Assembly (NCBI GenBank): GCA_045863855.1
Contig: BTVV01000009.1
Coordinates: forward strand, 1-64,000
Direction of reading: 5' to 3'
From: Planctomycetota bacterium
GTDB taxonomy: Bacteria; Planctomycetota; SZUA-567; H5-PLA8
Length of the DNA: 64,000 bases
This document shows positions 22,969 through 60,871 of this stretch, one piece after another. Position numbers and translations under genes: made by a program. The notes beneath the pieces were generated by a model, which did not search any database, was not told where the DNA came from, and saw only the letters and a list, made by a program, of their open reading frames with translations. Numbering within the stretch: the stretch's first letter is position 1; every line of letters starts with the position of its first letter.

Positions 22969-22972
22969 GGCC

Positions 22973-26930: not shown

Positions 26931-27043
26931 GCCTAGACGCTAATTCGCCTAGGCCGATGGGCGGATAGGCCTCCCATAATTGCGTGTTTTTACAGTATAG
27001 GCGGAATTTAGCTGGATCGATCCTTCGTATCCATTAGGGGTTT

Positions 27044-27412
27044 ATGTCCATCGAAGCGCTGCATTCATGGAGCCGGTACGGCGCATACGTGTGTGCGGCG
27101 GCGGTAGGCATTCCTGGTATCCTGGCGACTGGGGCCATCGTTTGGGCCGCGGCGATGGGATTTGTGCGCTCCAGCGTGGGCGTGCAGCTATTTAGCGTGT
27201 ATCTATTCTCTTGTTTTGCGAGCCCGGTTTGCGGTCTAGCGGTCTTGGTTGCGAATGGTTTGATGCGCCGAGCGGCGCGGAAAGCCGACGCCGATGCGGA
27301 TTGGACGATTCTAAAGCGGACGACGTGGTGGGCCGTGGCGGCTTTGTTATCAGGAGTGGTGTGGTTATTCCTGCTTCCCTTCGTATTCTTCTCATTGGGT
27401 GGCAGCCGGTAG
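27044..27412 (+). CDS. Small 3-TM membrane protein of unknown function, atypical codon usage
   Basis: Three hydrophobic segments; many T/A-ending codons (CTA, TTA, TCA, TTT) unlike its neighbours. Confidence 0.55.
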   Translation: MSIEALHSWSRYGAYVCAAAVGIPGILATGAIVWAAAMGFVRSSVGVQLFSVYLFSCFASPVCGLAVLVANGLMRRAARKADADADWTILKRTTWWAVAALLSGVVWLFLLPFVFFSLGGSR

Positions 27413-27549
27413 CTTGCCTTGAATCCGCTTATTTTTAGATCGCATCGATAAGCCGAATTCGAGCGCCGATCGTCTCCCAGTTGCATCGAAATGCGGTTGT
27501 GGACGCATTGGGGTTTCGGCGATTCGAGCTTCTCGAGGACACCCGACTT

Positions 27550-27573
27550 GCGGGCGGGGACGCCCGCGATACC
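27550..27573. repeat. REP-like palindrome
   Basis: GCGGGCG-GGGA-CGCCCGC hairpin; the minus strand reads GGTATC-GCGGGCGTCCCCGCCCGC, a GTAG-like foot plus stem. Only one copy seen here. Confidence 0.4.
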
Positions 27574-27632
27574 TTTACAGCGCTTTTCGGCTCGACGTTT
27601 GGTCGGGCGAAACGGGTGCGAGGTACTAACGA

Positions 27633-29386: not shown

Positions 29387-32300
29387 ATGTTACGGCAATT
29401 GGTCGGATTGAGCGCGGTCTTACTGACCGCGACGGTCGGGCTTTGGGCCGGCGAGTCCGCGGGGCCGCAAGTAACGGGAGGCACTGCGACGTTCGCACAG
29501 AATGGCGCGAATTGGACGGTCACCACGGGTTCGAATCGGACGGTGATTCGCTGGAACAGCTTCGGCGTGCCCCAGGGTTCAACCACTCAGTTTATCCAGC
29601 CGGGGAAGGGCTCGGCGGTGCTGAACAAAGTAACGGGTTCGCTGCCGTCCGAGATTGCCGGCGCGCTGCTTTCGAATGGCCGAGTGTACCTGCTCAATCC
29701 CAACGGCATTCTGGTCGGTCCTTCGGGGGTGATTCGCACGGCGGGGTTTGTCGCGAGCACGCTGGGGGTCAACGAGGGCGAATTCCTGGAGGCGGGGACG
29801 CTGCATTTTGCCGGCGGCGGCGAGGCGTCGGTGGTGAACCTGGGGACGATCGAAGCTTCCAGCGGTCCGGTGCTGCTGATCGCGCCGCGCGTGGAGAACC
29901 ACGGGACGATCCGAGCGGCGGACGGCGTAGCGGGGCTGGTCGCGGGACGCGACGTGCTGCTGACGGCGGACGATCAGATTTACATTCAGCCTTCGGCCGA
30001 GACGCTGGGCGGCACGGGCATCGAGAATACGGGCACGATCGAAGCGGCTCGCGCCGAATTGGTGGCGCAAGGCAACTTGTACGGGCTGGCCATCAACAAC
30101 AGCGGGACGGTGAACGCGACGAGCGTAGTGGAAGAAGGCGGGCGGATCCTGCTGCGCGCCGACGGCGGACGGATCGTGAACAGCGGGACGCTCACCGCGA
30201 GGACGCTGAACGCCGACGGCAAATCGACGGGCGGTACGATCGAGGTCGCCGGCGCGGAGGTGATTCTGGACGGTCCGGCGCGGCTGGACGTGAGCGGCGA
30301 TCTGGGCGGGGGGACGATCCATGTCGGCGGGAATTACCAAGGCCAAGGCCCGCTTCCCAACGCGCAGTACGTCTGGGTCGGCTCGAACGTCGAAATCAAC
30401 GCGGACGCGCTGGAAGTGGGCGACGGCGGGACGGCGATTTTCTGGTCGGATCTGGGGACGTGGTTTTACGGTTCGCTGAGCGCCAAGGGCGGTGCGTCCG
30501 GCGGCGACGGCGGCTTCGCGGAAATCAGCGGCAAGGCCTTCCTGCGCATGGCTGGCTCGGCGGATCTGAGCGCCGCCAACGGTAGTTTAGGAACGTTGCT
30601 GTTGGACCCGACGGATATCGAGATTCAGAACGGTTCCAGTGACGGGGACGACACGGGAGCATCCGCCACGGACTTTTCGAACAACTTTCCGGGCGGCGCT
30701 CCGGCGACGAGCGTGATCTTCGAGTCTGAACTGGAAGGCCTAGCGGAAAACGCGAACGTCACGATTCAGGCCACCAACAGCGTGATCCTGAAAGATCTGA
30801 CGACGGATGGGGTGCTGGAACTGGCGCTCGCCTCAGGTTCGCTGACGATTGATGCGGGAACCTCGTTCACGTTTGAAGATACCACTAACACCATCCGCAC
30901 GAACGGCGGCGACCTGATTGTCACCGCCGCTTCGGCGACGCTGGGCGTGCTGGACACAACCGGTTCGACGGGGACTGCGACGGGCGGAAATATCTCCGTC
31001 ACGACCTCGGGCACCATCACGCTGCATCAGAATCTGACGACGCTCGACGGCAATATCACCCTTGCCGGGGCGGTATCGTTGCAGACCGACCTCACCCTGA
31101 ACACCGGCGACGGGAATGCCTCGATCACCGGCGCGCTCGACGGCAACGCGAACACTCTCACGGTGGTTTCGGGCGCGGGAACGGTGACCTTTGGCAGCGC
31201 GCTGAGCGACCTGGACACACTCGACGTGACTGGCGGGACGATCTCGCTGGGCGGAAACGTGACCACGACGGGCACGCAGGACTACCACGGCGATGTGGAG
31301 ATCGCTGGCGCGAGCGTGACGCTCACGACCACCGATAGCACCGTGACCTTCGACGGCGCGATTGAAGGCGATACCGATGGCGGCCAGGCGCTTACGGTAA
31401 GCGTCGGCAACGGCGACATCGTGCTCTCAGGCGACGTGGGCGCGACCAACGCGTTGGCCTCGCTGAACCTGACCAGCACCAGCACGACCATCGAAATCGG
31501 CGGGAACGTCACCACGGCCGGCGCGCAAGTGTACGACGGACACGTGCTGATTACCGGCGGCGACGTGACGCTCACCGGTGTGGGCATTCAGTTCACCGGC
31601 GACGTGGACGGTTCGGGCACCGAGAACTTGACGGTGGATGCGACGACGGGGACGGCCGATTTCCAGGGTGCGGTAGGCCTTCTCAATAACTTCGAGGCCT
31701 CCGGCGCGGCGATCCTCTTCGCCGGCGACGTGACCACCGACGGGACGCAGACTTACACCGGCGCCGTTGAACTTTTCGGTGACCGGACCTTCACGGCCTC
31801 CGACGCTGACATCACCTTCGACGGCGCGGTTTCGGGCAATACCGCGGCCGAAAACCTGACCGTGGACGCGGGGACCGGCGCAGTGGACTTCACCGGCGCG
31901 TTGACCGACTTGGCCTCCTTGGACGCCACCGGCACGACCATCGGCGTGGGCGCGAACGTGACGACGAGCGGAGCGCAGGACTACCACGGCGACGTTTCCG
32001 TCAACGGCACGGCGACGCTCTCGGGCACGGACTTGACCTTCGAAGGCACGGTGACAGGCTCCGGCGGACCAGACCTGACCGTTTCCGGCACAGGGACGGT
32101 GGACTTCCAGGACGAGGTGAGCGCGCTCAACAGCCTCGCCGCCACCGGCACGACGATCCAGATCGCCGCGGACGTGAGCACCACGGCTTCGCAGAGCTAC
32201 ACCGGCGACGTGATTCTATTCGGCGACCTGACGCTTAACGCGGTTGGAGTGACCTTTTCGGCGACCGTTACGGGCAACGCGACCAGCGAAGTCCTGACGA

Positions 32301-35300
32301 TCGCTTCGACAGGCGGCACGGTGGACTTCGGCGGGGAAGTCAGCGACTTGGGCAGCCTGGACGTAACGGCCGACTCCATCGAGTTCGCCGCGAACGTGAC
32401 GACGACCAACGCACAGACGTACACGGGCGACGTGGCCCTAAATGGCGATATCTTGTTCACCACCACCGATCACGACGTGACCTTCGACGGCGCGGTCACC
32501 GGCGGCGGGAACGACCTGACCGTCGCGGCCGGCGCAGGCGACGTGATCGTCACGGGCGCGGTCTCCGGCGTGGGGGCGCTCGATCTGACCGGCGCCACGA
32601 TCGAGTTAGGCGGCGATGTCACGACCACCGGCGCGCAGACCTACCAAGGCAATGTGCAGATCAACGAAAGCCTTACGCTCACGGGCGCCGGCCTCACGTT
32701 CGAGGGCACCGTCGCCGGCGGCGACGGCGATGAAGACCTCACTGTGGACGCCGGCGCGACCACGGCCGATTTCCAGGACGCGGTAAGCAAACTTTCCAGC
32801 TTCGACGTTACCGGTGCGGCGATTCAGTTGGCCACCGACGTGACGACGACCGGGCTGCAGAGCTACGACGGTGCGGTCACGATTTTTAGCTCGCTTACGC
32901 TGACGGCAGGCGACGTGACCTTCGTGAGTACCGTGGAAGGCGACACGGGTGCGGAGAGCCTGACGATCGATGCAACTGGCGGGACGGCGGATTTCGGTTC
33001 CACGGTGGATTCGATCGATGTGCTCGATGTGACGGGAGCCACGATCCGGTTCGCTGCAGACGTTACGACCGAAGGCGCGCAGACGTTCACCGGCGACGTG
33101 GAACTGACGGGGAGCGTGCTCTTCACGACCAGCAACGACGGCGTGACCTTCGACGGGAACGTGGACGGCGGCACGAACGACCTGACGGTGGACGCGGGTA
33201 CGGCGGCGGTGGAGATCGCGGGGAACGTCACGGACGTCGGGACGCTCGACTTGACCGGAACCACCATCGAATTGGGTGGGGACGTCACGACCACCGTATC
33301 GCAGACCTACCGGGGCAACGTGGTGGTCAACGCGAGCCTCACGCTGACCGGCGCGGGAATCTTGTTCGAAGGCACGGTCGCCGGCGGCGTGGGAACCGAA
33401 GACCTGACGGTGGACGCCACGACGGGCACGGCCGATTTCCAGGACGCCGTCAGCAGCCTGAACAACTTCGACGCGTCCGGCGTGGATATCTTCCTGGCCA
33501 CGGACGTGACGACTACCGGCACGCAGGATTACGACGGCTCGGTGAGGCTCTACGGGGACGTGATCCTGACGGGCAGCGGCGTGGCCTTCTCCGGAATCGT
33601 GGAAGGCGACCTCGGCTCTGAAAATCTGACTGTGGACGCCACGGGCGGCACGGCCGACTTCGGCGGCGACCTCAGCAGCCTGGCCAGCCTTGACGTGACG
33701 GCGAACACGATTCTGCTCGGCGCGGACGTAACCACCACCGGAGCGCAGGACTACAACGGCGCCGTCGAATTGCAGGCCAACGTGGCACTCACCACCAGCA
33801 CAGCCGGCGACGTGACCTTTGCCGACACGGTGGACGGTTCTGGCGCGGGCGGTCAGAACCTGACCTTGGACGTGGCCGGCGCCATCGACTTCCAGGGGGC
33901 AATCGGCTCCTCGGTGCGCTTGGGCGCTATCCAAGTGGACGATGCCACCGACCTCTCGCTGTTGGGCCTGACGGCGGGCAGCTTCACGCAGGTCGCCGGC
34001 ACGGGCACGACGACCTTCGACGGCGCCGTGGATCTGGATGCGGCGGGCGGGCTGAACGTTGCGACGGACACCATCCTTGTCAACGGCACCGTGGACACGG
34101 TGAACGGCGGCGGCGTGACGCTGACGGCGGCCAGCGCGCTGACGATCGATGCAGCGGCTGTGATGAACCTGGACGGCGCGTTCCTAGAGAACGGCGCCGG
34201 GACGGTGAACGCGGCGGGCAGCATCACCACCAGCAACGCGGATGTGACCTTCACCAACATCGTGACGCTGGACGGAGATCTGGCTGTGACGAGCGGCGGG
34301 GGCCAGATCGAATTCCTGGGCGGCGCGGTGGGATCGACCGACGGCGGGGAGTCGCTGACGCTGGACGCGGGCTCGGGCGGGTTCACCTTCGGGGGCGATT
34401 TGGGAGCGGCGGGGGCGGCGTTGAACGACCTGACGCTGACCTCGGACCAGCTCTTTACGCAGGACGTTGATATTGTCGCGGCGGGAACGGTGCTTTTGCA
34501 GACCGCCGGCGCGACGCAGAACGCCGGATTCACGGTTCAGGCCGATACGCTGCTGCTTGAGGGGACGGGCGACTTTACGCTGAATGGGGCAAACGATGTT
34601 TCGAGCTTCGGCACCAGTGGCACAGGTGTGGCCGGCGACATCGTTTTCAACAACGGTACGACGAACCTTACTACGCTGGCGATCGACACGACGGGTACGG
34701 GCAACCTGACGCTGCGCCACGACGGGACGCTGGACTTGATGGGCGCGGTGAGCCTGACGGGTTCGTTCGTCGAAGAAAACGCGGCAGGTACCGGCGCGGG
34801 TGGGCTGGTGACGCTGGCGCAGGACTTAAACGTCGCGGCCGGCGAGGACATCACCTTCAAGAGTGCGTTGGCGATCGACGGGACGGTGGAGATCTCGACG
34901 TCGGGCGCGGGCAACTTGAACTTCTTCACCATCGACGGTGCGACGGTCGATACGGATTCGATCACGCTGACGGTGGACACGGGCTCCATTACGTATACCG
35001 GCGGACTGGGCGGCGGGACGCGCTTCGACAACATCACGCTGAACACGGGTGCGGGGATCACGATCGATCAAGATTTGAGCGCGGCGACGCAGGTAACGAT
35101 CAACGCGGGCGGGAACATCGATCATTCGGACGGAACGATCTCCGCCGACACGGTCACGCTCACCACGACGGCCGGCGGTGCGACGCAGTCGGGTACGGCG
35201 AGCATCGATGCGACGACGCTGCTGGTGGAAGGCACGGGCAACTTCACGCTGAACAACGCGAACAGCGTGGACGAGTTCGGCACCAGTGGCGCAGGCGTGG

Positions 35301-38300
35301 CCGGCGACATCGTCTTCAACAACGGTACGACGAACCTTACTACGCTGGCGATCGACACGACAGGTACGGGCAACCTGACGCTGCGCCACGACGGGACGCT
35401 GGACTTGATGGGCGCGGTGAGCCTGACGGGTTCGTTCGTCGAAGAAAACGCGGCAGGTACCGGCGCGGGTGGGCTGGTGACGCTGGCGCAGGACTTAAAC
35501 GTCGCGGCCGGCGAGGACATCACCTTCAAGAGTGCGTTGGCGATCGACGGGACGGTGGAGATCTCGACGTCGGGCGCGGGCAACTTGAACTTCTTCACCA
35601 TCGACGGTGCGACGGTCGATGCGGATTCGGTAACGCTTACGCTGGGCACGGGCACGCTGGCCCTGGGTGGTGCGATCGGCGGCGGCACGCGGCTCGACAA
35701 CGTAACCTTCAACTCGGGCGCAGGTATCACCCTGAACCAGAACGTGACCGCGGCGACGCAAGTGGACGTGAGCGCGGCCGGAGCCATCGCGCAGACGGCT
35801 GGAACGATCTCCGCCGACACGGTCACGCTCACCACGTCGGCCGGCGGCGCGACGCAGTCGGGTACGGCGAGCATCGATGCGACGACGCTGCTGGTGGAAG
35901 GCACGGGCAACTTCACGCTGAACAACGCGAACAGCGTGGACGAGTTCGGCACCAGTGGCGCAGGCGTGGCCGGCGACATCGTCTTCAACAACGGCAATAC
36001 GGCGCTAACGACCTTGGCGATCGACACCACAGGCTCGGGCAACCTGACGCTGCGACACGACGGAACCTTGGACCTGTCCGACACGATCACGCTGACGGGT
36101 TCGTTCGTCGAAGAAAACGCGGCAGGTACCGGCGCGGGTGGATTGGTGACGCTGGCGCAGGATCTGAGCGTCGCGGCGAACCAGAATATTACCTTCAAGA
36201 GCGCCCTTGAAGTTTCCGGAGACCGATCGATTTCGACCTCGGGTACGGGGAACTTGAGCTTCTTCACGATCGACGGAAGCACGGCCGATACGGACGCGAT
36301 CACGCTCACCGTGGATACCGGCTCGATTACCTACTCCGGCGCCATTGGCGGCGCCACCCGCTTCGACGCGATTACGCTGAATACGGGCGCGGGGATCACG
36401 CTAGGCCAGGACCTGGACGCGGCGTCGCTGATCGAGATCAACGCGGCGGGGACGATCTCGCACACGGGCGGGTCGCTCTCGGCCGCTACGGTGCATCTGA
36501 ACACGACCGCCGGCGGCGTCTCGCAGGCCGTTGGCAGCGGTGGGATCGCGGCGACGATCTTGACGCTCGAAGGGACCGGGAATTTCTCCCTGCTCGACGC
36601 GGACAACGCGGTGGGCACGCTTGAAACCAACGGCGCGCTGGCCGGGGACTTGACCTTCGTGACCGGCTCGACGGTGACGACCGGCGACATTACCGCAGAC
36701 GCCGTGGCCGTCGAACACACCGGGGCGCTGACGCTGGGCGGGGACATCACCGCGGACTCGTTCGTCGAATCGAACGTCGGGAATACGGGCGGCAGCGCCG
36801 GCGGCGTCAACACGCTCGCCGGAGCCGAACGGACGATCGATACGAGCGGCGCGGGCGGGGCCATCACCTTCAAGAGCAACGCGACGCTGAACAGCGACCT
36901 GACGCTGAACGCAGGGGCCAGCGGCGGAACGATCACGCTGGCGAACGTGAATGACTCGGTGGCCGGCGCCGATACGCTCGACCTGACCGGCGGCGGGTTC
37001 GCCTTCGGCACGCTGGGGACGCCGAACCGCCTGGGCGAGATCGCGCTCACCACCAACCAAGCCGGTGGCATCACGGTGACAGGTACGGGCCTGAACGCCG
37101 ATCGTATCACCTTCGAAAACACCGGCGGCAACCTGACGGTCGGGTCGGCTCTGACGGCCGACGAGATCACCCTGACGGCCAACGGGATGCTCGCGGTGAA
37201 CGGTCTGCTCACGGCGCTCGACGGCGGCGCGGGCCTGGTGACGCTGAGCGGCACTGGGATCACGCAGACGGCGGGCATCCGCACCGATACGCTGGAACTG
37301 GACGGCACGGGCAGCGTGGTGCTGAATTCGGCGGCGAACCAGATCGAGGCGCTGACCGCCCTCTCGAACACTCTGGACGATGTTCAGGTGACGACGAACC
37401 CGGCGAGCGGAACGTTTACCTTGGGCGCGTTCGATACGACGGGCGCGGCCGGGACCGGCGACCTGACGGTTAACTTCGGCAGCGACAATCTGCTGATCAA
37501 CGGTCCCGTGGATCTTAAAGGTTCGTTCTCGACGGGCGCCTCGAGCGGCGGGATCACGTTGGCCGGCGACCTTACGGTGGGTAACAGCATCACCTTCACC
37601 GGAACGCTGGGCGTCTCGGGTGTGGCGTCGTTGACCAGCGGAGCCGGCGGCGGGATCACGCTGGGCGATGTGACAGGCGCGGGCGCGGACTTGACCCTGA
37701 CCGCGGGCAGCCTGGGGATCGATTTCAACGGCAACGTGGGCACCTCGGGCGGGCGCTTGAACAGCCTGACGCTGAACACCGACGGACCGGTGACGCAGGA
37801 CGCCGGCGAAAAGCTTCACGCCAATACCTTGACGCTTCTGGGCGATGCGATGTACGCGCTGCGCACGAATATCCTTACGCTCGACGGCGGCGGCGCGACG
37901 CTGGGCGGCTCGCTGTCGCTGGCCAACGACGGCGCATTGGCCGTGGACGTGAATCCGCTGACGGTCGCGGGTGACGTGACCCTGCGCACGTTGGCCGGCG
38001 CGATTACGATCAACGAAGACGTCAGTTCCACCGGCGCGGGCGGAACGGTAACTCTGGATGCGGCCGGCGGCGCCACGACGACCGGCGGATCGACGGTGAG
38101 CGCGGACAATCTGCTGCTGTCCGGAGGCGGAACGTTCGACCTGGCTACCTCGGTAGACACGGTGGCCTCGACCAACTTGGGCGCGGGTTCGGTCACGCTC
38201 GTAAACGACCAGACGCTGGCCGTGGGCGACGTCGGCGCGGGGTCGGGTTTGACGGCCGGGGGCGGGATCGACCTGACCGTCACGGCCGGAGACCTGACGC

Positions 38301-41218
38301 TTAACCGCGGGCTGAGCGCGGGGACGGGCGATGTGAGCCTCGACTGGGGCGGCACGCTGGCGCAGAACGCGGGGACGATTGCCGGCGGCACGCTGACGCT
38401 GGCCGGGGACAGCAACGCGGGCCTTGCGCTGGCGCTCAACGTGAGCGAGATCGCGGGAACGGTGACGGGTTCGAGCACGCTGGCACTGAACAATGCCGGT
38501 GTGCTGACCTTCACGGGCTTCGACGCGGATACGAATTCCCTGCGCGTAAACGCGGGAGGGGCGAACGGAGACTTGAGCGCCGCCGATCTGCTGCTCACGG
38601 GCACTGGAATTTTCAATCTCGACACAACGGTCGGCACGCTGGCGGCGAACGTGACTGGCGCGCTGACGATCGACGAAACCGACGGACTGATCGTGGGCAC
38701 CGTCAACGGCGAGAACGGTGTGCAGACCGCGGGCGGGAACGACATCAGCCTGACGGCCGGCGGAGCGCTGATCCTGAACCAGCAAGTGAATGCCGGCGCG
38801 GCGGGGGATGTGACGCTGGACTTCGCGACGCTGGGCGGCGCGGCGTTGGTGACCGGCAACGTGCTGGACCTGGCCGGAGCGAGTGGGTTCACGCTGACGA
38901 CGGACGTAAACGTGCTGCAGGGTACGCTGACGGGCGCGGCGGCGACGACCGTGAACAATACCGGCGCGCTGAACCTGAACGGGTTCGATGCAAGTGGGAT
39001 TTCGCTGCGCCTTTCGGCCGACGGCGCCACGGGCAGCGTGACGTCGAACGAACTGCAACTTAACGGCACGGGAGTCTTCAACCTCACGACGACGGTGAAC
39101 ACGCTGGCGGCCAATGTGACGGGCGCGCTGAGCGTGGACGACACCGACGGGCTGACCGTGGGCACCGTGGGCGCGGTTACGGGCGTGAACAGCAACGGCA
39201 GCGCGGTGACGCTGGGCACGAACGGCGCGGGGGTCCTGGCGTTGAACCAGGATGTGACGGCTGCCGGTGCGACGGTCATCCTCGATGCAGCCGGCGACGT
39301 GACTTCAGGTGGCGGCACCGTAACGGCCCAGACGCTGGACTTGCGCAGCGGCGGCGCCGCGACGGTGGACGCGAACGTAACGGTCCTGCGCGGGTTCTCG
39401 AACGGAAACTTGGACCTTACCAACGCGGGCCATTTGAACCTGAACAACTTCAACGCGGCAGGCGTCGATTTCCTCCTGACGGCGGCGGGCGCGGACGGAA
39501 CGGTGAGCGCCGGCGGCTTGGCGATTTTCGGCACGGGGGCTTTCGCTCTGACCTCGACGCTGGACCGCCTGGCGGGGAATGTCAACGGAGCGGTGACAAT
39601 CACCGATGCGGGCACGCTGACGATCGGGACGGTGGGCGCGCAGAACGGGCTGATCAGCACCGGGGGAGATATCCGGCTGACGGCTCCGGGCGGCCTTAAC
39701 TTGGCGCAGGACCTGCGCGCGGCGGGCTTCGAGATTCACCTGCAAGGGAATGGCGCGCTGCAGACGGGCGGAACGCTGGAGGCCGACCGGCTGCGGCTGG
39801 CCGGACCGGGTGCGTTTACGCTGACAGGCGCGACGAACGACGTGAATGTCCTGGCGGCGCAGACCAACAGCGCTCTTTCTTTTACCGATGTGGATAACCT
39901 GACCATCGGCGCGGTCGGCGTGACGGTGGGGATCGATACGAGCGGAAATAACCTGACGCTGTCGACCGGCGGCATGCTGATCTTGGCGCAGGAAGTCCGC
40001 GCGGGCTTGGCCACGACCACCTTTAATGTGGCGGCGGGCGGCGTAAACCAAGTTCCAGGCGCCCGCATCATGTCCGACCGCTTGCTGCTGACGGGCGCCG
40101 GCGCTTTCAATCTTCTGGAAGGCGGCAACCTGATCCGCACCCTGGCCGGCAACCTGACCGGCGGCGGGGCTTCGACGCTGAACTTTCGCACGGCGGGTAA
40201 CCTGTTCATCGGGACGGTCGGCGTTCAGAACGGGATCCTGACCACGGGCGGCTCGGTCACGCTGGCCGCGCCGGGCGGATTTATCCAGGTAGATCGTCCA
40301 ATCAATACGGGCGCCGGTCCGCCCGGTACGGCGACGCTGACGGGCGATATTCGCCCCGCGAATCCGATGCTCGCGGGATCGGGCGACATCACGCTCACGG
40401 CCCAGATTCTGCCGGGGGGCGGCGCGGGGAATACGACGACCTTCCAGTTGAACCCTTCGATTCCGATGGGACCGCAGGACGGCGGCTTTACGCTGCCGGA
40501 CCTCGGGAACGTAAACATCGGGATCGATACGTTCGACGATCCGGACGGGTTGGGTGCGGGCGGCGATCTTGGGACGAACGGCGACGACCTTCAGATCACG
40601 CTGCCGGAAGAGTTGCTCAAAGCGTTCAATACGGTGCTCTCGGTGACTTCGACGACGGGCTTCGAAGACGAAGGCCTGCGCAATTCGCTGGACGAGTTCC
40701 AGGCATCGGAGCAGGCGCTGACGCTGGCGCAGCAGGTGCTCGACCACGCGGCCAAAGTGCTGCGTTCGCTGCAGCCGGGCGACCCACTGCGCGAGGCGCT
40801 GCAGAAGCTGATCGACGAAGTGAACGCGGCCTCGCAGGAAGTGCGGAAATCGAACGTGGCGCTGGCCGAGTTGATCGCGAAGTTGTACGCGGACGGCCGT
40901 CCGGATCGCGTGGGCAAGGATGCGCTGGAAGGCGCGCTGAAGGGCATGCAGCGCGCAAACGAGCGGCTGCTCGTCACGTCGCGGGCGCTGGAAGCGGCAT
41001 TGAAGGCGATTCAGCAGCCGGCGGGCGCTCCGGCGGCCCCGGCGGATCGAGCGGTGCTTGAAGTGGCGGCTCAGCGCGCGCGGGAGCAGGCCACTCGCGA
41101 GGCGGCGGATGCGCGCGACCGGCAGGACCGCGTGGGCCAGGACGCGAAGTTTGCGACCCTGGAAGAATACAAGGCGCAGGAAAAAGGGCGCAAGCCGGAA
41201 GGTACCGACGGGAAATAG
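29387..41218 (+). CDS. TpsA: filamentous-haemagglutinin-family exoprotein, 3943 aa
   Basis: Signal peptide; TPS domain (IRWNSF, VLNKV, SNGRVYLLNPNGILVG); GGFAEISGK...GTLLLDP; long G/T/D beta-helix repeats; helical C-terminal region. Confidence 0.95.
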   Translation: MLRQLVGLSAVLLTATVGLWAGESAGPQVTGGTATFAQNGANWTVTTGSNRTVIRWNSFGVPQGSTTQFIQPGKGSAVLNKVTGSLPSEIAGALLSNGRVYLLNPNGILVGPSGVIRTAGFVASTLGVNEGEFLEAGTLHFAGGGEASVVNLGTIEASSGPVLLIAPRVENHGTIRAADGVAGLVAGRDVLLTADDQIYIQPSAETLGGTGIENTGTIEAARAELVAQGNLYGLAINNSGTVNATSVVEEGGRILLRADGGRIVNSGTLTARTLNADGKSTGGTIEVAGAEVILDGPARLDVSGDLGGGTIHVGGNYQGQGPLPNAQYVWVGSNVEINADALEVGDGGTAIFWSDLGTWFYGSLSAKGGASGGDGGFAEISGKAFLRMAGSADLSAANGSLGTLLLDPTDIEIQNGSSDGDDTGASATDFSNNFPGGAPATSVIFESELEGLAENANVTIQATNSVILKDLTTDGVLELALASGSLTIDAGTSFTFEDTTNTIRTNGGDLIVTAASATLGVLDTTGSTGTATGGNISVTTSGTITLHQNLTTLDGNITLAGAVSLQTDLTLNTGDGNASITGALDGNANTLTVVSGAGTVTFGSALSDLDTLDVTGGTISLGGNVTTTGTQDYHGDVEIAGASVTLTTTDSTVTFDGAIEGDTDGGQALTVSVGNGDIVLSGDVGATNALASLNLTSTSTTIEIGGNVTTAGAQVYDGHVLITGGDVTLTGVGIQFTGDVDGSGTENLTVDATTGTADFQGAVGLLNNFEASGAAILFAGDVTTDGTQTYTGAVELFGDRTFTASDADITFDGAVSGNTAAENLTVDAGTGAVDFTGALTDLASLDATGTTIGVGANVTTSGAQDYHGDVSVNGTATLSGTDLTFEGTVTGSGGPDLTVSGTGTVDFQDEVSALNSLAATGTTIQIAADVSTTASQSYTGDVILFGDLTLNAVGVTFSATVTGNATSEVLTIASTGGTVDFGGEVSDLGSLDVTADSIEFAANVTTTNAQTYTGDVALNGDILFTTTDHDVTFDGAVTGGGNDLTVAAGAGDVIVTGAVSGVGALDLTGATIELGGDVTTTGAQTYQGNVQINESLTLTGAGLTFEGTVAGGDGDEDLTVDAGATTADFQDAVSKLSSFDVTGAAIQLATDVTTTGLQSYDGAVTIFSSLTLTAGDVTFVSTVEGDTGAESLTIDATGGTADFGSTVDSIDVLDVTGATIRFAADVTTEGAQTFTGDVELTGSVLFTTSNDGVTFDGNVDGGTNDLTVDAGTAAVEIAGNVTDVGTLDLTGTTIELGGDVTTTVSQTYRGNVVVNASLTLTGAGILFEGTVAGGVGTEDLTVDATTGTADFQDAVSSLNNFDASGVDIFLATDVTTTGTQDYDGSVRLYGDVILTGSGVAFSGIVEGDLGSENLTVDATGGTADFGGDLSSLASLDVTANTILLGADVTTTGAQDYNGAVELQANVALTTSTAGDVTFADTVDGSGAGGQNLTLDVAGAIDFQGAIGSSVRLGAIQVDDATDLSLLGLTAGSFTQVAGTGTTTFDGAVDLDAAGGLNVATDTILVNGTVDTVNGGGVTLTAASALTIDAAAVMNLDGAFLENGAGTVNAAGSITTSNADVTFTNIVTLDGDLAVTSGGGQIEFLGGAVGSTDGGESLTLDAGSGGFTFGGDLGAAGAALNDLTLTSDQLFTQDVDIVAAGTVLLQTAGATQNAGFTVQADTLLLEGTGDFTLNGANDVSSFGTSGTGVAGDIVFNNGTTNLTTLAIDTTGTGNLTLRHDGTLDLMGAVSLTGSFVEENAAGTGAGGLVTLAQDLNVAAGEDITFKSALAIDGTVEISTSGAGNLNFFTIDGATVDTDSITLTVDTGSITYTGGLGGGTRFDNITLNTGAGITIDQDLSAATQVTINAGGNIDHSDGTISADTVTLTTTAGGATQSGTASIDATTLLVEGTGNFTLNNANSVDEFGTSGAGVAGDIVFNNGTTNLTTLAIDTTGTGNLTLRHDGTLDLMGAVSLTGSFVEENAAGTGAGGLVTLAQDLNVAAGEDITFKSALAIDGTVEISTSGAGNLNFFTIDGATVDADSVTLTLGTGTLALGGAIGGGTRLDNVTFNSGAGITLNQNVTAATQVDVSAAGAIAQTAGTISADTVTLTTSAGGATQSGTASIDATTLLVEGTGNFTLNNANSVDEFGTSGAGVAGDIVFNNGNTALTTLAIDTTGSGNLTLRHDGTLDLSDTITLTGSFVEENAAGTGAGGLVTLAQDLSVAANQNITFKSALEVSGDRSISTSGTGNLSFFTIDGSTADTDAITLTVDTGSITYSGAIGGATRFDAITLNTGAGITLGQDLDAASLIEINAAGTISHTGGSLSAATVHLNTTAGGVSQAVGSGGIAATILTLEGTGNFSLLDADNAVGTLETNGALAGDLTFVTGSTVTTGDITADAVAVEHTGALTLGGDITADSFVESNVGNTGGSAGGVNTLAGAERTIDTSGAGGAITFKSNATLNSDLTLNAGASGGTITLANVNDSVAGADTLDLTGGGFAFGTLGTPNRLGEIALTTNQAGGITVTGTGLNADRITFENTGGNLTVGSALTADEITLTANGMLAVNGLLTALDGGAGLVTLSGTGITQTAGIRTDTLELDGTGSVVLNSAANQIEALTALSNTLDDVQVTTNPASGTFTLGAFDTTGAAGTGDLTVNFGSDNLLINGPVDLKGSFSTGASSGGITLAGDLTVGNSITFTGTLGVSGVASLTSGAGGGITLGDVTGAGADLTLTAGSLGIDFNGNVGTSGGRLNSLTLNTDGPVTQDAGEKLHANTLTLLGDAMYALRTNILTLDGGGATLGGSLSLANDGALAVDVNPLTVAGDVTLRTLAGAITINEDVSSTGAGGTVTLDAAGGATTTGGSTVSADNLLLSGGGTFDLATSVDTVASTNLGAGSVTLVNDQTLAVGDVGAGSGLTAGGGIDLTVTAGDLTLNRGLSAGTGDVSLDWGGTLAQNAGTIAGGTLTLAGDSNAGLALALNVSEIAGTVTGSSTLALNNAGVLTFTGFDADTNSLRVNAGGANGDLSAADLLLTGTGIFNLDTTVGTLAANVTGALTIDETDGLIVGTVNGENGVQTAGGNDISLTAGGALILNQQVNAGAAGDVTLDFATLGGAALVTGNVLDLAGASGFTLTTDVNVLQGTLTGAAATTVNNTGALNLNGFDASGISLRLSADGATGSVTSNELQLNGTGVFNLTTTVNTLAANVTGALSVDDTDGLTVGTVGAVTGVNSNGSAVTLGTNGAGVLALNQDVTAAGATVILDAAGDVTSGGGTVTAQTLDLRSGGAATVDANVTVLRGFSNGNLDLTNAGHLNLNNFNAAGVDFLLTAAGADGTVSAGGLAIFGTGAFALTSTLDRLAGNVNGAVTITDAGTLTIGTVGAQNGLISTGGDIRLTAPGGLNLAQDLRAAGFEIHLQGNGALQTGGTLEADRLRLAGPGAFTLTGATNDVNVLAAQTNSALSFTDVDNLTIGAVGVTVGIDTSGNNLTLSTGGMLILAQEVRAGLATTTFNVAAGGVNQVPGARIMSDRLLLTGAGAFNLLEGGNLIRTLAGNLTGGGASTLNFRTAGNLFIGTVGVQNGILTTGGSVTLAAPGGFIQVDRPINTGAGPPGTATLTGDIRPANPMLAGSGDITLTAQILPGGGAGNTTTFQLNPSIPMGPQDGGFTLPDLGNVNIGIDTFDDPDGLGAGGDLGTNGDDLQITLPEELLKAFNTVLSVTSTTGFEDEGLRNSLDEFQASEQALTLAQQVLDHAAKVLRSLQPGDPLREALQKLIDEVNAASQEVRKSNVALAELIAKLYADGRPDRVGKDALEGALKGMQRANERLLVTSRALEAALKAIQQPAGAPAAPADRAVLEVAAQRAREQATREAADARDRQDRVGQDAKFATLEEYKAQEKGRKPEGTDGK
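34607..36420 (+). repeat. Three in-frame tandem units with a 669-bp (223-aa) period inside tpsA
   Basis: TTCGGCACCAGTGG starts at 34607, 35276 and 35945. 34607-34951 is near-identical to 35276-35620, and 35132-35325 to 35801-35994. Confidence 0.9.
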
Positions 41219-41221
41219 CCC

Positions 41222-44200
41222 ATGAGCGAAAACGAGACACCTAAAAAAGAAGACGCCGAGCCGGACGTGGTCCTGCCCTCCGAACAGTCGGAGGAGGAGC
41301 TGAAAACTCTGCTTCAGGAAGTGTGGCGCAATACGATCGCGCCGCACGAAATGAACAAAGTTCCGCTGAAGTCGGATCAGCTCAAGTCGGACGTGACCAT
41401 CGTGACGGCGCAAGCGTTGCCGCAAGGAGCCGTGGCGGCGACGGTGATGGGGAACGGCACCAGCAGCGTCCCGAAGGCGAATCCGCGAACGGTCTTCTCG
41501 CTGCCGGAGACGCAGACGGTCATCGGCTCGACCGGATCGCGGCTGGGCGTGACGGGCACCAAAACACAGATCGACGATCCCGGTGCGAAGGCCATCGAGA
41601 CAGCCGCGACCCTGATGGGGCCGCAGGGCACCAAGTCCCCGAACAAGACGCCGACCCAGACGGCCCGGGGCACCGTAACCTCCCGCGGATCGGTGACGGC
41701 GCGCGGTACGACGACGACGCGCAGCACCAGCGCCAAAGCCCTGCTCCAAGCGGCCAAGAAGCTGGCGTCGATCTCCGTTTCTCGCCTGATCGTGCAGGAA
41801 AAGAGCGTTGTCGATAAGCCCGTGGAAGCGCAGCCGCTGGATTTGGACCCGGAAGCCGGCGTAGCGGATTTCGAGATCGAGCGGGTGCTGGGTGAAGGCG
41901 GCATGGGCGTGGTGTACATCGCGCGGCAGACGGCCATCGACCGCGAAATCGCGCTCAAGATGATCAAGCCGAAGATGTCGCAGAACCCGGATATCCAGGC
42001 CGTCTTCCTGGCTGAAGCGGCAGTAACGGGCGACCTGGAACATCCGAACATCGTACCGATCTACGATCTGGGTGTGACGAGCGACGGAGTGCTGTTCTAC
42101 GCGATGAAGCACGCGAAGGGCGTGCCGTGGAAGAATGTGCTCACCCAGCGCGCGCAGCAGGACAACATCGAGATTTTAATGAAGGTGGCCGACGCGGTGG
42201 CATTCGCGCACGCGAAGGGCATCATTCACCGCGATTTGAAGCCCGAAAATATCATGTTGGGCGAGTTCGGCGAAGTTCTGGTAATGGACTGGGGTCTGGC
42301 GGCCTGCGTGAAGGACGGCGGAAAAATCGGCCGGCTCACGCCGGACAACGCGGCGGGCGGCACGCCTGCGTACATGGCGCCCGAGATGGCCACGGGCAAC
42401 GTGGAACTGATTGGCTACGTCAGCGACGTGTACCTGCTGGGCGCGATCCTGTACGAGATCGTTGCGGGCGTACGCCCGCACGCCGGCAAAGACATGATGG
42501 ATCTCCTGTTCAACATCGCGACGAACAAGATCCAGCGGACGGACAAGAAGGGCGAACTGATCGATATCGCCTTGAAGGCCATGGCCGCGAAGCCGGAGGA
42601 CCGCTACCCCAACGTCAAGGCCTTCCAAGATGCGATCCGCTCGACGCAGAAGCACTTCGAAAGCATCGCGCTTTCGGATAGCAGCCAGGAGCGGCTGAAT
42701 AAGGCGCTGAAAACAAAAGAGTACGAAGACTTCGCGCAGGCGCTCTTCGGTTTCGAAGAAGCGTTACAGATGTGGAAGTCGAACAAGGCCGCCAAACAAG
42801 GCGCACTGGATACGCGGTTGTATTACGCGAAGGCGGCAGTGGAGAAGGAAGACCTGGACTTGGCGGCTTCGCTGATCGAGCCTGCGAAGGATAAGTTCGG
42901 GAGCTTCCTCAACGAGATTAAGTCCCGCATGCGCTCGCGAGATGCGCGGCGCTTCCGGCTGCGCGCGCTGACCTACGGTTCGGCGGGCCTGGCGGCGCTC
43001 TTCCTGGTGGGCGTGACGGTGGCGTACTTCCTGGTCTCCGACGAGCGCGACCGCGCGGAGGTGGCGCGGCAGAACGCAGAACTGGCCAAGAAAGCCGAAG
43101 AACAGCAACGCCAGGAAGCCGAGAATCAGCGTGCCGAAGCGGTGCGAAGCAAGGAACAGGCGGAAGATGCGCGCGTGCGCGCCGAGACGGCGCGCAAGGA
43201 AGCCGTTTCGCAGCGCGAGCGCGCGGAGAAGGCGCTCACCGATCTGGCCCAGGAGAAGAGCAAGGTAGAAGAAGCCTACTCCAAACTGGAGAAGCAGGCT
43301 CGAGAATTGATCGAAGCTCAGCAGGCCGAGTTGGAGGCGAAGAAAAAGACGGAACTGGCGGAACTTTTGAAGAGCGAGGCTCAGAAAAAGGCGGACGAAG
43401 CGCAGGCGGAAGCCGCACGCACGGGCATGCTGATCAAGGCCTCGGAAGACTGGATCTTCGACGGCGCCGATGCCCAGAAACGCCAAGCCGCAGCGGCGGC
43501 CAAACTTGGGAAGCCGGCGCAGATGGACCTGGACCTTCCCAAAGCCGCGAAGCTGCGCATGGTGCTGGTGCCCGAAGGCGTTTTCGTCATGGGCAGTCCC
43601 GCCAAGGAGTCTTCGCGCGCGGCAGAAGAGTACCTGCATCAGGTCATGCTGCCGCAGGCGTTTTGGCTGAGCGCGACGGAAGTAACCCGCGCGCAGTGGG
43701 AAGCGCTGACGGGTCAACCCGCGCCGGCCATGAGCGAAGGCGGGGATCTGCCGGACCTCCCGGTGGTGAACGTGAGCTACAATGACATCTCAAGTCTGCT
43801 GCTTCCGAAATTGCAGCCGCTCGCGCCGGAAGGCTACGTTTTCCGTCTGCCGACGGAAGCGGAGTGGGAGTGGGCGTGCCGCGCGGGAACCAATACCGCG
43901 TATGCCGTGGGCGACGACGAAGCGGCCCTGCGTGATGCGGCGTGGTTCCGGCTGAATAGCCGCGGCGCTCCGCACCCGGTGGCGCAACGCCGCGCCAATC
44001 CGTGGGGTCTGTTCGATCTTCACGGAAATGTCTCGGAACTCTGTCACGACGCTTACGACCCGAATTACTACCTGACCGGAGCGAAAGAGGCTCCGATGAA
44101 CGTAGACAACGAGAAATTTAAAGTGGTGCGCGGCGGTTCGTGGGTGAACCTGCCGCAGCACTGCCGGTCGGCGTACCGCAGTTACGCGCACCCGGACAAT

Positions 44201-44263
44201 CGCTACGACCATTTGGGGCTGCGCGTTGCGCTGGCTCCGAAGGCCGCGAGCGGCGGACGCTAA
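41222..44263 (+). CDS. Membrane Ser/Thr kinase - TM - coiled coil - FGE-sulfatase (SUMF1-like) domain protein
   Basis: GEGGMG, IALK, HRDLKPEN, DWG, GTPAYMAPE; TM ALTYGSAGLAALFLVGVTVAYFLV; E/K/A-rich heptads; FVMGS, RLPTEAEWEWACRAG, NPWGLFDLHGNVSE, RGGSW. Confidence 0.93.
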   Translation: MSENETPKKEDAEPDVVLPSEQSEEELKTLLQEVWRNTIAPHEMNKVPLKSDQLKSDVTIVTAQALPQGAVAATVMGNGTSSVPKANPRTVFSLPETQTVIGSTGSRLGVTGTKTQIDDPGAKAIETAATLMGPQGTKSPNKTPTQTARGTVTSRGSVTARGTTTTRSTSAKALLQAAKKLASISVSRLIVQEKSVVDKPVEAQPLDLDPEAGVADFEIERVLGEGGMGVVYIARQTAIDREIALKMIKPKMSQNPDIQAVFLAEAAVTGDLEHPNIVPIYDLGVTSDGVLFYAMKHAKGVPWKNVLTQRAQQDNIEILMKVADAVAFAHAKGIIHRDLKPENIMLGEFGEVLVMDWGLAACVKDGGKIGRLTPDNAAGGTPAYMAPEMATGNVELIGYVSDVYLLGAILYEIVAGVRPHAGKDMMDLLFNIATNKIQRTDKKGELIDIALKAMAAKPEDRYPNVKAFQDAIRSTQKHFESIALSDSSQERLNKALKTKEYEDFAQALFGFEEALQMWKSNKAAKQGALDTRLYYAKAAVEKEDLDLAASLIEPAKDKFGSFLNEIKSRMRSRDARRFRLRALTYGSAGLAALFLVGVTVAYFLVSDERDRAEVARQNAELAKKAEEQQRQEAENQRAEAVRSKEQAEDARVRAETARKEAVSQRERAEKALTDLAQEKSKVEEAYSKLEKQARELIEAQQAELEAKKKTELAELLKSEAQKKADEAQAEAARTGMLIKASEDWIFDGADAQKRQAAAAAKLGKPAQMDLDLPKAAKLRMVLVPEGVFVMGSPAKESSRAAEEYLHQVMLPQAFWLSATEVTRAQWEALTGQPAPAMSEGGDLPDLPVVNVSYNDISSLLLPKLQPLAPEGYVFRLPTEAEWEWACRAGTNTAYAVGDDEAALRDAAWFRLNSRGAPHPVAQRRANPWGLFDLHGNVSELCHDAYDPNYYLTGAKEAPMNVDNEKFKVVRGGSWVNLPQHCRSAYRSYAHPDNRYDHLGLRVALAPKAASGGR

Positions 44264-44299
44264 GCGGTAAAGGACCGACCGATAAGGCTTTGCCAGGTC

Positions 44300-46129
44300 A
44301 TGGACCGCCGTAGTACGGCTGGGAAAAGCGCCGGGAAACCGGGCGCATGGAGCGTTGTTTTCCGCATGGGCAGCCTCGTGCCTAATCGCATGCACGTCGT
44401 CGCGTGGCTGCTGGCCCTCGGCCTGAGCGGGCTGAGCGTCGCGCACGGCGTGGAGGACGAGCGGCGCAAGCCCAAAGAGCCCGAGAAGCCCGCTGCTCCG
44501 GACGTGGAAATCAAAAAGCCGGAACCCGAACAGACCGAAGCCGAGAAGAATAAGGACGCCGAGAAGACCCTCGTCGAAGCGCTGATCGGGCTTCGTCTCG
44601 TGGGCCGCACCGAAGACGTGATTCCCAAAGACGCGAAAGTTTCGGGCATCGATACCTCCAGCGTGCCGATGCTGGAGTCCGATGAGTTGCACGAAAAGCT
44701 TTCGGAATTTGTGGGCAAGCCGATCTCGCTGAAGGCGATTCGCGGCATGGCGAGGGAAGTGATTCTCCATTGCCGGGCGCACGACCGGCCCTTCGTCAAT
44801 ATCTCGGTCCCCGAACAGGACATCACGGGCGGCGTGGTGCAGCTCCTGGTGGTGGAAGCGAAGGTGGGCGAAGTGCGCGTGGAAGGGAACCGCTTCTGGC
44901 GCACTGCCCAATACCGCAATGGAGTCACCCTTCAGCCCGGCGATTCGGTGAGCGAGCAGAAGCTGATCGAGGAGTTGAACTATTTCAACGAAAACGCCTT
45001 CCGCCAGGTAAAGCCGATCTTCAAGCCGGGCAAAGAGCCGAATACGACGGATTTGGTCCTAAAAGCCGAGGAGCGCTTTCCGGTGCGCTTCTACGGAGGC
45101 TACGAAGATACGGGAACGCAGAGCACCGGCTTGGATCGAATGCTGGTTGGATTCAACTGGGGCAATGCGTTCATGCACGGCCACGAGATCGGATACCAGT
45201 TCGCGGCGGACATCGACGTGGAGCGGCTCCTGAGCCACAGCGGGTACTGGCGCATTCCGCTTCCGAATAAGCACTCGCTGGCGTTTTCGGGCGGCTATTC
45301 GACCATTCAGGCGCCCCTCAATGCGGACATCGATAACGGCGGGTTCAACTGGCAGGCCAGTATGCGCTACATCGCGCCGTTGCCCAAACTGGGGCGCTAC
45401 CGGCATGAAGTGCAGATTGGATTCGATTTCAAGCAGACGAACAACAATCTGGACTTCGGCGGTGAAGCGATCTTCGATTCGACCATCGATATCGCGCAGT
45501 TCGCGCTTCAGTACAGTGGAAGCTATCCGGATGCTTGGGGCCGCACGAGTTTTTCGGTGGGCGGCTACGCGAGCCCCGGGCACTTGACGAGCCGGAACAC
45601 ATCGCACGAGTATAACGTCGCGCGGCCAGGCACCGATCCTCAGTACGCATACGGCGAGTTGAGTTTCGAACGAGCGTGGCGATTGCCGAAAGAAATCCTC
45701 CTGGTGCAGCGCTTTCATGGGCAACTGGCGACGGGACGCATGCAGAGTACGGAACAGTATTTGGCAGGCGGATACAACTCGGTGCGTGGATACGACGATC
45801 GCTTGGTCTCCGGCGATCAGGGCTTCGTGGCAAACGTGGAACTGCGCTCGCCGAATTTTCTCCTGGGTACCGTGAACGGAGATCCGCAGTACGAGAACCG
45901 CCTGCAGTTCATTGCCTTTTACGATTTTGGCCGCGTGCATAACCACGGGCGTTTGATTGGCGAAGCGAAGCGGACGGATCTGGAAAGCGTCGGCGCGGGT
46001 TTGCGTTACCGCCTCGGCAACCACGTGAACGTTCGGTTCGATTACGGCCGGCAACTCAGGCGGATCGACGGCAATACCGAAGGCGGCGACCACGGACGCG
46101 TGCACTTGGGCGTGGTAGTCAGCTATTGA
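44300..46129 (+). CDS. TpsB: ShlB/FhaC/HecB family outer-membrane transporter
   Basis: POTRA motifs (VPEQDITGGVVQLLVVE, VRVEGN); VRGY loop-6 motif; C-terminal aromatic (VVVSY). Start may be 44366 or 44390. Confidence 0.93.
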   Translation: MDRRSTAGKSAGKPGAWSVVFRMGSLVPNRMHVVAWLLALGLSGLSVAHGVEDERRKPKEPEKPAAPDVEIKKPEPEQTEAEKNKDAEKTLVEALIGLRLVGRTEDVIPKDAKVSGIDTSSVPMLESDELHEKLSEFVGKPISLKAIRGMAREVILHCRAHDRPFVNISVPEQDITGGVVQLLVVEAKVGEVRVEGNRFWRTAQYRNGVTLQPGDSVSEQKLIEELNYFNENAFRQVKPIFKPGKEPNTTDLVLKAEERFPVRFYGGYEDTGTQSTGLDRMLVGFNWGNAFMHGHEIGYQFAADIDVERLLSHSGYWRIPLPNKHSLAFSGGYSTIQAPLNADIDNGGFNWQASMRYIAPLPKLGRYRHEVQIGFDFKQTNNNLDFGGEAIFDSTIDIAQFALQYSGSYPDAWGRTSFSVGGYASPGHLTSRNTSHEYNVARPGTDPQYAYGELSFERAWRLPKEILLVQRFHGQLATGRMQSTEQYLAGGYNSVRGYDDRLVSGDQGFVANVELRSPNFLLGTVNGDPQYENRLQFIAFYDFGRVHNHGRLIGEAKRTDLESVGAGLRYRLGNHVNVRFDYGRQLRRIDGNTEGGDHGRVHLGVVVSY

Positions 46130-59855: not shown

Positions 59856-60848
<993 letters not shown>

Positions 60849-60871
60849 CGCATCGAAAGCACCCTGACGCC

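Follow-up and report, generated by a model that had tools for sequence, protein, structure and literature searches.

The 64,000-nucleotide stretch analysed here (the window; positions 1 to 64,000 of the forward strand of contig BTVV01000009.1, assembly GCA_045863855.1, from a Planctomycetota bacterium) carries a two-partner secretion (TPS) operon in which the gene of a receptor-like Ser/Thr kinase, bearing a head of the formylglycine-generating enzyme (FGE) fold, lies between tpsA, which encodes a giant adhesin-like passenger, and tpsB, which encodes its putative transporter. Based on complex models, the C-terminal domain (CTD) of TpsA and the FGE head are likely to bind each other physically. 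The tail and the kinase form a portable pair, found with TPS passengers in two lineages and with DUF4347 passengers in most others, and the module is not TPS-specific. An initial annotation of the stretch had proposed that the FGE head senses the TpsA C-terminus; this interpretation is partly supported and widened, predicted recognition being upheld by topology, linkage and the complex model, while the restriction to TPS was too narrow. The annotated layout (a 3943-aa tpsA, a 3-bp gap, a kinase/transmembrane/coiled-coil/FGE gene and tpsB, all co-oriented) was confirmed at every coordinate and comprises the following features.

29387..41218, + strand: tpsA, 3943-aa TPS passenger, adhesin-like, rich in Gly, Thr, Asp and Ala, without Cys (open reading frame (ORF) calls, profile matches, composition)
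29477..30193, + strand: TPS secretion domain, TpsA aa 31-269 (PF05860, E 1.5e-26; NPNG at aa 104)
34607..36244, + strand: three internal tpsA repeats, period 669 bp, of which two are 99% identical (self-comparison)
40397..40591, + strand: Gly/Asp/Pro-rich linker, TpsA aa 3671-3735, before the tail domain (composition)
40592..41191, + strand: CTD, five-helix domain, TpsA aa 3736-3935, predicted ligand (AlphaFold pLDDT 85; family search)
40892..40945, + strand: predicted docking motif where helix 4 begins, TpsA aa 3836-3853, with D3840, R3841, V3842 and D3845 (complex interface)
41222..44263, + strand: receptor-like Ser/Thr kinase-FGE gene, 1013 aa (domain matches, alignment, AlphaFold model)
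41867..42655, + strand: Hanks-type kinase domain, catalytic motifs intact (Pkinase match aa 217-435; motif alignment)
42656..42946, + strand: helical juxtamembrane domain, aa 479-575, typical of the kinase clade (model and homologue comparison)
42965..43036, + strand: single transmembrane helix, aa 582-605 (hydropathy)
43037..43450, + strand: periplasmic coiled-coil stalk, aa 606-743 (heptad-step lengths; Ala every seventh residue)
43451..44239, + strand: FGE-fold head without the catalytic Cys pair, predicted receptor domain (FGE-sulfatase match aa 779-1003)
44117..44215, + strand: predicted ligand site, aa 966-998, with N976, H980, S987, Y/W988, N993 and Y995 (complex model, clade signature)
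44300..46129, + strand: tpsB, Omp85-family transporter, 609 aa (two POTRA domains and a ShlB barrel)

The complex was predicted from kinase residues 609-1008, which include the whole stalk, and the TpsA tail. Modelling of these two parts had been suggested as a check, and the prediction passed, with ipSAE values of 0.88, 0.86 and 0.88 in three runs against 0.00 for the best of three controls; in calibration, 116 of 157 solved complexes reached the ipSAE mark, as did 2 of 215 mismatched pairs, figures that apply only roughly to the custom alignments used here. The runs shared at least 58% of their contacts, with a partner pLDDT of at least 75. Confident contacts join FGE residues 910, 938 and 966-998 with tail residues 3836-3853, and thereby place the D-R-x-x-x-D motif, the most conserved motif of the CTD, inside the predicted ligand site of the FGE head. 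Across 65 rows of the CTD alignment, position 3840 is D in 60 and E in 4, position 3841 is R, Q or K in 57, and position 3845 is D or N in 59. On the kinase side, five or six of the six signature positions are present in 67 of the 81 clade kinases, while the site varies among 15 control FGE domains, taken from 20 retrieved ones (offsets unaligned). Divergent tails pair with divergent FGE sites (genomes G037, G442, G436 and G444). A tail-FGE partnership is also consistent with two natural losses. In genome G036, whose tail lacks the motif, no clade kinase was found; in G039, where the FGE site of the kinase is generic, searches found neither a DUF4347 or TPS gene nor a clear tail.

The predicted site aligns with the active-site segment of true FGE and with the C-terminal segment of TvpA, the best PDB sequence match of the head (E 4.8e-21), and that segment forms the ligand site of FGE-type C-lectin folds (PMC5006420). 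The same holds for TvpA and Mtd, proteins of diversity-generating retroelements (PMC5006420 and PMC7159879); unlike their hypervariable sites, the present one is conserved, and with no reverse transcriptase among the 31 window proteins the head does not classify as such a retroelement target.

Adjacency of a kinase and a TPS gene in a single genome is weak evidence, because this genome holds 85 kinase ORFs (with 3 FGE ORFs and one TPS locus, the present pair being its only one). We therefore turn to the relatives. A search for tpsA-kinase-tpsB neighbourhoods had been recommended: the order was found in 5 of 41 related genomes (G000, G001, G002, G004 and G012), which make up two genera of one family, so that it does recur in four further genomes, but most homologues of the kinase are linked to DUF4347 passengers instead. 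In G037, from another family, tpsA is divergent from a run of tpsB, FHA-GAF-HD, kinase-FGE and FHA-kinase genes, and G442 has the same run with tpsA on a separate contig. In seven genomes (G023, G025, G027, G029, G030, G032 and G038) the kinase adjoins a DUF4347 passenger gene, which is divergent from genes for TolC, two HlyD proteins and an M50-HlyD fusion. A scan of GTDB with the tails of other lineages returned 13 loci, several of them titled Phycisphaerae: a clade kinase lies within 4 kb in five, in five a single clade kinase, next to an FHA gene, sits at another place in the genome, and for three none was found (two G419 loci, on one of which the contig ends 0.5 kb past the passenger, and a 2-kb contig). 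Nine of 30 tail clusters match one of the 81 clade kinases by exact contig size, with 0.045 expected, and one of these nine (P0148) was also observed directly as a neighbouring pair. In 20 held-out genomes of the class, unused for the profile but not wholly independent since two contigs were known from protein searches, a clade kinase lies within 6 kb in 4 of 7 tail matches; among their 18 clade-kinase loci, seven lie next to a gene with the tail and another five next to a TolC/HlyD/M50 or TpsB gene. G433 carries at least three separate tail-kinase pairs, and the 11 best kinase matches across 401 genomes of the phylum are the 11 genomes with an adjacent tail. The metagenome contig scan gave no confirmed locus and a word-index search for longer proteins one match, both weak negatives.

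That there is no physical partnership at all, the kinase being co-regulated or hitch-hiking in kinase-rich genomes and the complex a false pass, is unlikely. The 85 kinase ORFs would allow for it, 7 of 44 blind neighbour pairs passed the same complex test, and unlinked and orphan tails and kinases occur; against this, the linkage persists across secretion system, passenger body and gene orientation (co-oriented, convergent or after the M50 gene), and the conserved residues of both sides coincide with the predicted interface, with controls at 0.00.

The CTD itself had been overlooked. The TpsA C-terminus was annotated as lacking a VENN motif and any recognisable toxin, which holds, but it is not featureless, being formed by the conserved five-helix domain at aa 3736-3935. 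This domain has no Pfam family, no PDB sequence relative (best E 0.04) and no ESM Atlas match. Its best fold-search hit (Z 11.2 over 88 residues) is under the level meaningful for bundles, the best Foldseek match is the THATCH domain of HIP1R (E 8e-3), and a likeness to talin/vinculin-type bundles was not used as evidence, the fold searches having given generic helical bundles only. TpsA shares the CTD with DUF4347 passengers, whose TolC/HlyD/M50 export locus is unrelated to TPS: a profile made solely from TPS tails recovers the DUF4347 set, and one made solely from DUF4347 tails the TPS set, with nothing else at E <0.5 in either case (1426 ORFs), and HHalign joins the two sets at 96% (E 4e-9). 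The family is rare, with 66 matches among 1.84 billion representatives; the 36 proteins scanned comprise 27 DUF4347 passengers, one TPS passenger, six N-terminally incomplete adhesin pieces and two false matches. In all 50 measured rows the CTD lies at the C-terminus or at most about 100 residues from it, in 44 of the 50 it follows a low-complexity linker, and the passenger bodies that precede it are diverse (Ig, cadherin, FG-GAP, beta-helix, lectin). Weak tail matches in G069 and G331 were fetched and sit in unrelated proteins, and further weak matches occur in G134, G379 and G039. The DUF4347 passengers of loci L103, L106 and L109 have helical tails missed by the CTD profile, possibly of other tail families. 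The tpsA gene of G001 is interrupted some 400 codons from its end, at a short run of G (L012, 13500-13540); the break, which separates the tail, may be either a sequencing error or phase variation.

These properties bear on whether the tail is a delivered signal or toxin, passed CdiA-like to the periplasm of a neighbour, with the FGE head as kin receptor or as Tsi3-like immunity on an alarm kinase, which we consider unlikely. The order tpsA-then-kinase parallels toxin-then-immunity, the FGE-fold protein Tsi3 binds and neutralises the effector Tse3 (bioRxiv 10.1101/2021.05.21.445229), and tail and FGE site co-diverge between lineages, paralogous pairs coexisting in G433. However, the tail is one conserved family rather than a polymorphic one (99% identical between the TpsA proteins of G000 and G002, of which no other part is as well conserved, the bodies at aa 401-1200 being 83-86% identical), it shows no hydrophobic hairpin (window >1.6 in 1 of 63), no catalytic motif and no pretoxin or FHA-2 family match, no orphan immunity cassettes were seen, and Ig/cadherin passengers of 780-1400 aa have no known route across a target outer membrane. 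Like Tsi3, the non-catalytic FGE domain is predicted to bind an adjacently encoded secreted protein; unlike Tsi3, it is fused to a membrane kinase, and the partner bears no sign of toxicity or polymorphism (same preprint). The comparison with contact-dependent inhibition (CDI) systems is similar. CdiA/CdiB and Bordetella FhaB/FhaC (PMC7644211 and bioRxiv 10.1101/2025.06.17.660209) are likewise TPS pairs with a giant passenger, whose C-terminal part is there known to be periplasmic; in contrast, the present operon has no toxin, pretoxin or immunity gene of a recognised type, but a conserved tail and a receptor kinase. The locus is not a CDI system, having neither a polymorphic toxin behind a pretoxin motif nor a small cdiI, and the annotated absence of a small immunity gene was correct, tpsA being followed after 3 bp by the 1013-aa kinase gene. 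In principle, the FGE head might stand in for CdiI.

Trees of tail and kinase recover the same main groups, and the DUF4347-linked pair of G032 is sister to the TPS group of this locus (with support of 96 for the kinases and 87/72 for the tails). The kinase tree, a quick one under LG+G4, rejects monophyly of the TPS-linked kinases (p-AU 0.006). The tail-kinase pair has probably changed export system more than once, as far as these trees indicate; both being unrooted, no direction of change can be read from them.

By its motifs and predicted topology, the kinase protein is a receptor Ser/Thr kinase, with intact catalytic motifs, one transmembrane helix and an extracytoplasmic domain. Residues K246, E265, H336-R337-D338, K340, N343, D356 and P387-E388 are invariant in 81 of 81 clade rows, the DFG motif reading DWG. 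There is one strong hydrophobic segment (582-608) with an Arg-rich stretch just before it, hydropathy at this place exceeds 1.6 in every one of 87 homologues, and the predicted topology puts the FGE head outside the cytoplasm. None of the three outcomes listed beforehand as contrary to the proposal (no TPS linkage elsewhere, no predicted interaction, a cytoplasmic FGE domain) was observed. The AlphaFold model has a long helix from 560 to 743; stalk lengths range from 60 to 263 residues and equal 4 modulo 7 in 64 of 81 homologues or, with each length counted once, in 18 of 32, and these heptad steps fit a coiled coil whose phase matters. The head does not classify as a formylglycine-generating enzyme, since its aligned residues do not include both copper-binding cysteines: the first aligns to N976, where Cys occurs in none of the 81 rows, whereas C981 is kept in 71. 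Chlamydial Pkn1 is also a kinase-FGE fusion. The clade comprises about 80 proteins with 39-69% identity, most of them from genomes without TPS; an FGE match in G146 proved not to be a kinase. The same kinase and juxtamembrane module occurs with WD40 or TPR heads replacing FGE (P0088-P0120, C3:114304-117105), and L048 and L049 encode a short form without transmembrane helix or head, together a head-swapping receptor family.

Planctomycetes have a diderm envelope, and N-terminus-first threading through TpsB is established for TPS systems. The reading that we prefer, to which we give an even chance, is an outside-in cis-tether in which the adhesin tail, seated on the FGE head, reports export or load state through Ser/Thr phosphorylation. 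TpsA would cross the inner membrane via Sec and then thread, N-terminus first, through TpsB, while the folded CTD behind its Gly/Pro-rich linker would remain periplasmic, by analogy with CdiA and the LapA retention module. The D-R-x-x-x-D motif would insert into the non-catalytic FGE ligand site, which the stalk would hold at a height of 14-21 nm over the inner membrane (0.15 nm per residue for 95-138 residues), and binding, clustering or release of the CTD would alter the coiled coil in its register or dimer state and so switch the kinase. Phospho-Thr would presumably be read by FHA proteins, often FHA-GAF-HD phosphohydrolases, as judged from the gene neighbourhoods of relatives. Periplasmic retention of the tail, contact sensing and the direction of the signal are what we infer by analogy with known systems; the C-terminal half of CdiA stays periplasmic until contact (PMC7644211).

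Of 46 clade-kinase loci, 27 have an FHA gene no more than about 5 kb away, compared with 8 of the 85 kinases of this genome, these neighbours being FHA-GAF-HD genes, small FHA proteins or FHA-kinases; the FHA-GAF-HD homologue of this genome is on contig C3. Small conserved FHA proteins with an unnamed C-terminal domain were observed at L051 (15291-16857), L059 (14748-15572) and L063-L067; their genes are divergent, beside the kinase, in Phycisphaerae-type loci, and the proteins may be candidate direct substrates of the kinase.

Among known pathways, the closest parallel to how the module would work is TagR-PpkA-Fha, except that here the sensor is part of the kinase and the passenger would provide the ligand. 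TagQ/TagR-PpkA-Fha1 is the threonine phosphorylation pathway of the Pseudomonas aeruginosa H1 type VI secretion system, and dimerisation is the proposed switch of PpkA (PMC13713981). Both share a periplasmic FGE-fold domain, a single-pass Hanks kinase and a tie to a secretion system, a candidate FHA reader being encoded near many clade kinases but not in this operon. Whereas TagR is a separate periplasmic FGE protein, the FGE domain is here fused to the kinase via the coiled coil as a predicted receptor; unlike in TagR-PpkA, the predicted ligand is the passenger's own tail, and the systems are type Vb or TolC/HlyD/M50. Among the window proteins scanned there was no PP2C gene and, within the window, no type VI secretion system.

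The same predicted interface also fits inside-out control, in which the FGE head anchors the tail and cytoplasmic signals, acting through the kinase or the helical domain, release the adhesin, as LapD/LapG do with LapA; we think this rather doubtful. Long low-complexity linkers precede the DUF4347 tails (a median of about 88 qualifying windows over 39 passengers, versus 0-23 in five TPS passengers), as expected for threading a TolC tunnel, the FHA-GAF-HD neighbours hint at a cyclic-dinucleotide link, and LapA itself offers a precedent (bioRxiv 10.1101/198937). However, the catalytic residues, kept in 81 of 81 kinase rows, would not be needed by a mere anchor, some DUF4347 passengers end in another kind of helical tail with no kinase in the neighbourhood, so that retention needs none, and no LapG- or LapD-like gene is present among the window proteins scanned. 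In LapA/LapBCE/LapD/LapG, as in our proposal, the adhesin is tethered via an outer-membrane pore by a periplasmic domain with an inner-membrane-controlled partner, LapA being retained in TolC through an N-terminal module (same preprint); in contrast, the candidate retention domain is here C-terminal, its partner is a Ser/Thr kinase, and export is by TPS here and by TolC/HlyD/HlyD/M50 in relatives. The locus is not that of a LapA-type retained type I secretion adhesin, its candidate module being C-terminal and the genes scanned including no ABC transporter, LapG or LapD.

An extended form of the cis-tether reading, to which we hold tentatively and at somewhat less than even chances, is an integrin-like device: an adhesin threaded through its export pore would be gripped at its helical tail by the lectin-fold head of a coiled-coil receptor kinase, its load or release upon contact with a surface or a cell would lead to Thr phosphorylation read by FHA proteins, including cyclic-dinucleotide phosphohydrolases, and the cassette would have been grafted at least twice onto TPS and onto an N-terminus-first TolC/HlyD/M50 system.

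Several observations weigh against the cis-tether and the pairing on which it is built. The choice of site in the complex model may partly be memory of solved FGE-fold structures, and the complex was folded with custom alignments, so that its score compares only roughly with the calibration. Identities of tail and FGE head correlate with r 0.95 over 20 pairs (tail and kinase domain, 0.83), a correlation confounded by shared ancestry, the partial correlation of the stalk being equal (0.84). The tail tree, which has long branches, does not reject TPS monophyly (p-AU 0.39). As to linkage, most of the 11 linked cases among the 401 genomes were profile seeds, 6 of the 18 held-out kinase loci have neither partner (4 of them at a contig edge), G025, G029 and G443 carry extra passengers that have the tail but no kinase beside them, and in G035 and G040 (83-88% complete) a clade kinase but no tail was found. 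The stalk of this locus (138 residues) is off by one from the heptad rule and has a break in the model, and there is no FHA gene in this operon. Finally, a periplasmic tail of the Sec-less DUF4347 passengers requires N-terminus-first TolC export and release from the inner-membrane complex.

The export loci of the relatives were seen as an operon of TolC, HlyD, HlyD and M50-HlyD beside LEERIVLD/DUF4347 passengers (L017-L022, L051-L059, L102, L106 and L109). At these loci the passengers had no Sec signal and the genes scanned included no ABC transporter, and no description of this export system was found in the open-licence PMC or bioRxiv literature.

At the present locus, tpsA and tpsB are, by the sequence tests for both components, a genuine TPS (type Vb) pair, export of TpsA by TpsB being putative. 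The secretion domain of TpsA scores 94.3 bits with PF05860, against a cut-off of 33.5, and also matches TIGR01901; a Sec-type signal peptide (aa 1-21) was assigned by eye. Outside this domain TpsA has no Pfam family above cut-off and no VENN, RGD or Cys, and a check for FHA-1, YP and FHA-2 at aa 400-3640 gave no Pfam family, the repeats being too divergent to judge. TpsB matches POTRA_2, POTRA and ShlB and has the motifs VRGY (at 495) and FYDFG (at 540), corresponding to the VRGY and FxDxG motifs of TPS transporters (PMC7644211); its true start may be the ATG at 44390, judged by eye. TPS-like matches in G003 and G005 were rejected, having no TPS domain, TpsB or tail (no TpsB was found in either genome); they are giant proteins with the stretch in common that directly follows the TPS domain (L032, 2900-15244, in G003; L034, 1988-8746, in G005).

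The gaps between tpsA and the kinase gene (3 bp) and between the kinase gene and tpsB (36 bp) contain no ORF. Scans for promoters and terminators did no better than chance and placed no + strand terminator in either gap. RNA contigs from two studies, from a relative about 93-95% identical, span tpsA and the kinase gene, one of them bridging the junction (40502-42066); they do not establish co-transcription, because coverage hardly varies across 19 kb and may stem from carried-over DNA. A plasmid search gave no match.

One neighbouring gene immediately precedes tpsA in all five genomes with the tpsA-kinase-tpsB layout, and its product is a candidate accessory factor for the TPS version of the module:

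27633..29207, + strand: Sel1-repeat protein (PF08238, ten repeats)

A T2SSE/PilB-type ATPase precedes the Sel1 gene (25590-29207 for the two) and appears syntenic in G001. A cNMP-cNMP-4Fe4S protein (46221-47876), with a 62% paralogue on contig C14, starts 91 bp after tpsB; it is probably outside the module, since it trails tpsB only here and in G002. Elsewhere in the window, a 643-aa protein with two tandem kinase domains lies upstream of a HEAT-repeat protein, both on the minus strand (20482-24904), and a run of MoxR AAA, DUF58, DUF4381 and BatA/vWA genes occupies 59856-63896.

No description of the tail-kinase module was found in the open-licence PMC and bioRxiv literature, a scope that excludes most subscription papers. 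If the output were secretion feedback only, the module would be a variation on the PpkA-type pathway. Both halves of the predicted complex, the CTD and the FGE head, are small soluble domains, so that their binding is testable without culturing the organism. Under the proposed mechanism, DUF4347 passengers would be exported N-terminus first and held by their C-terminus, the reverse of LapA. To our knowledge, almost none of the receptor-like Ser/Thr kinases of planctomycetes has a known ligand, and one clade of them here gains a specific protein ligand, predicted at residue level. For these bacteria, the module suggests a possible surface-sensing route through the tail of a secreted adhesin, as well as what may be a new use of type Vb secretion.

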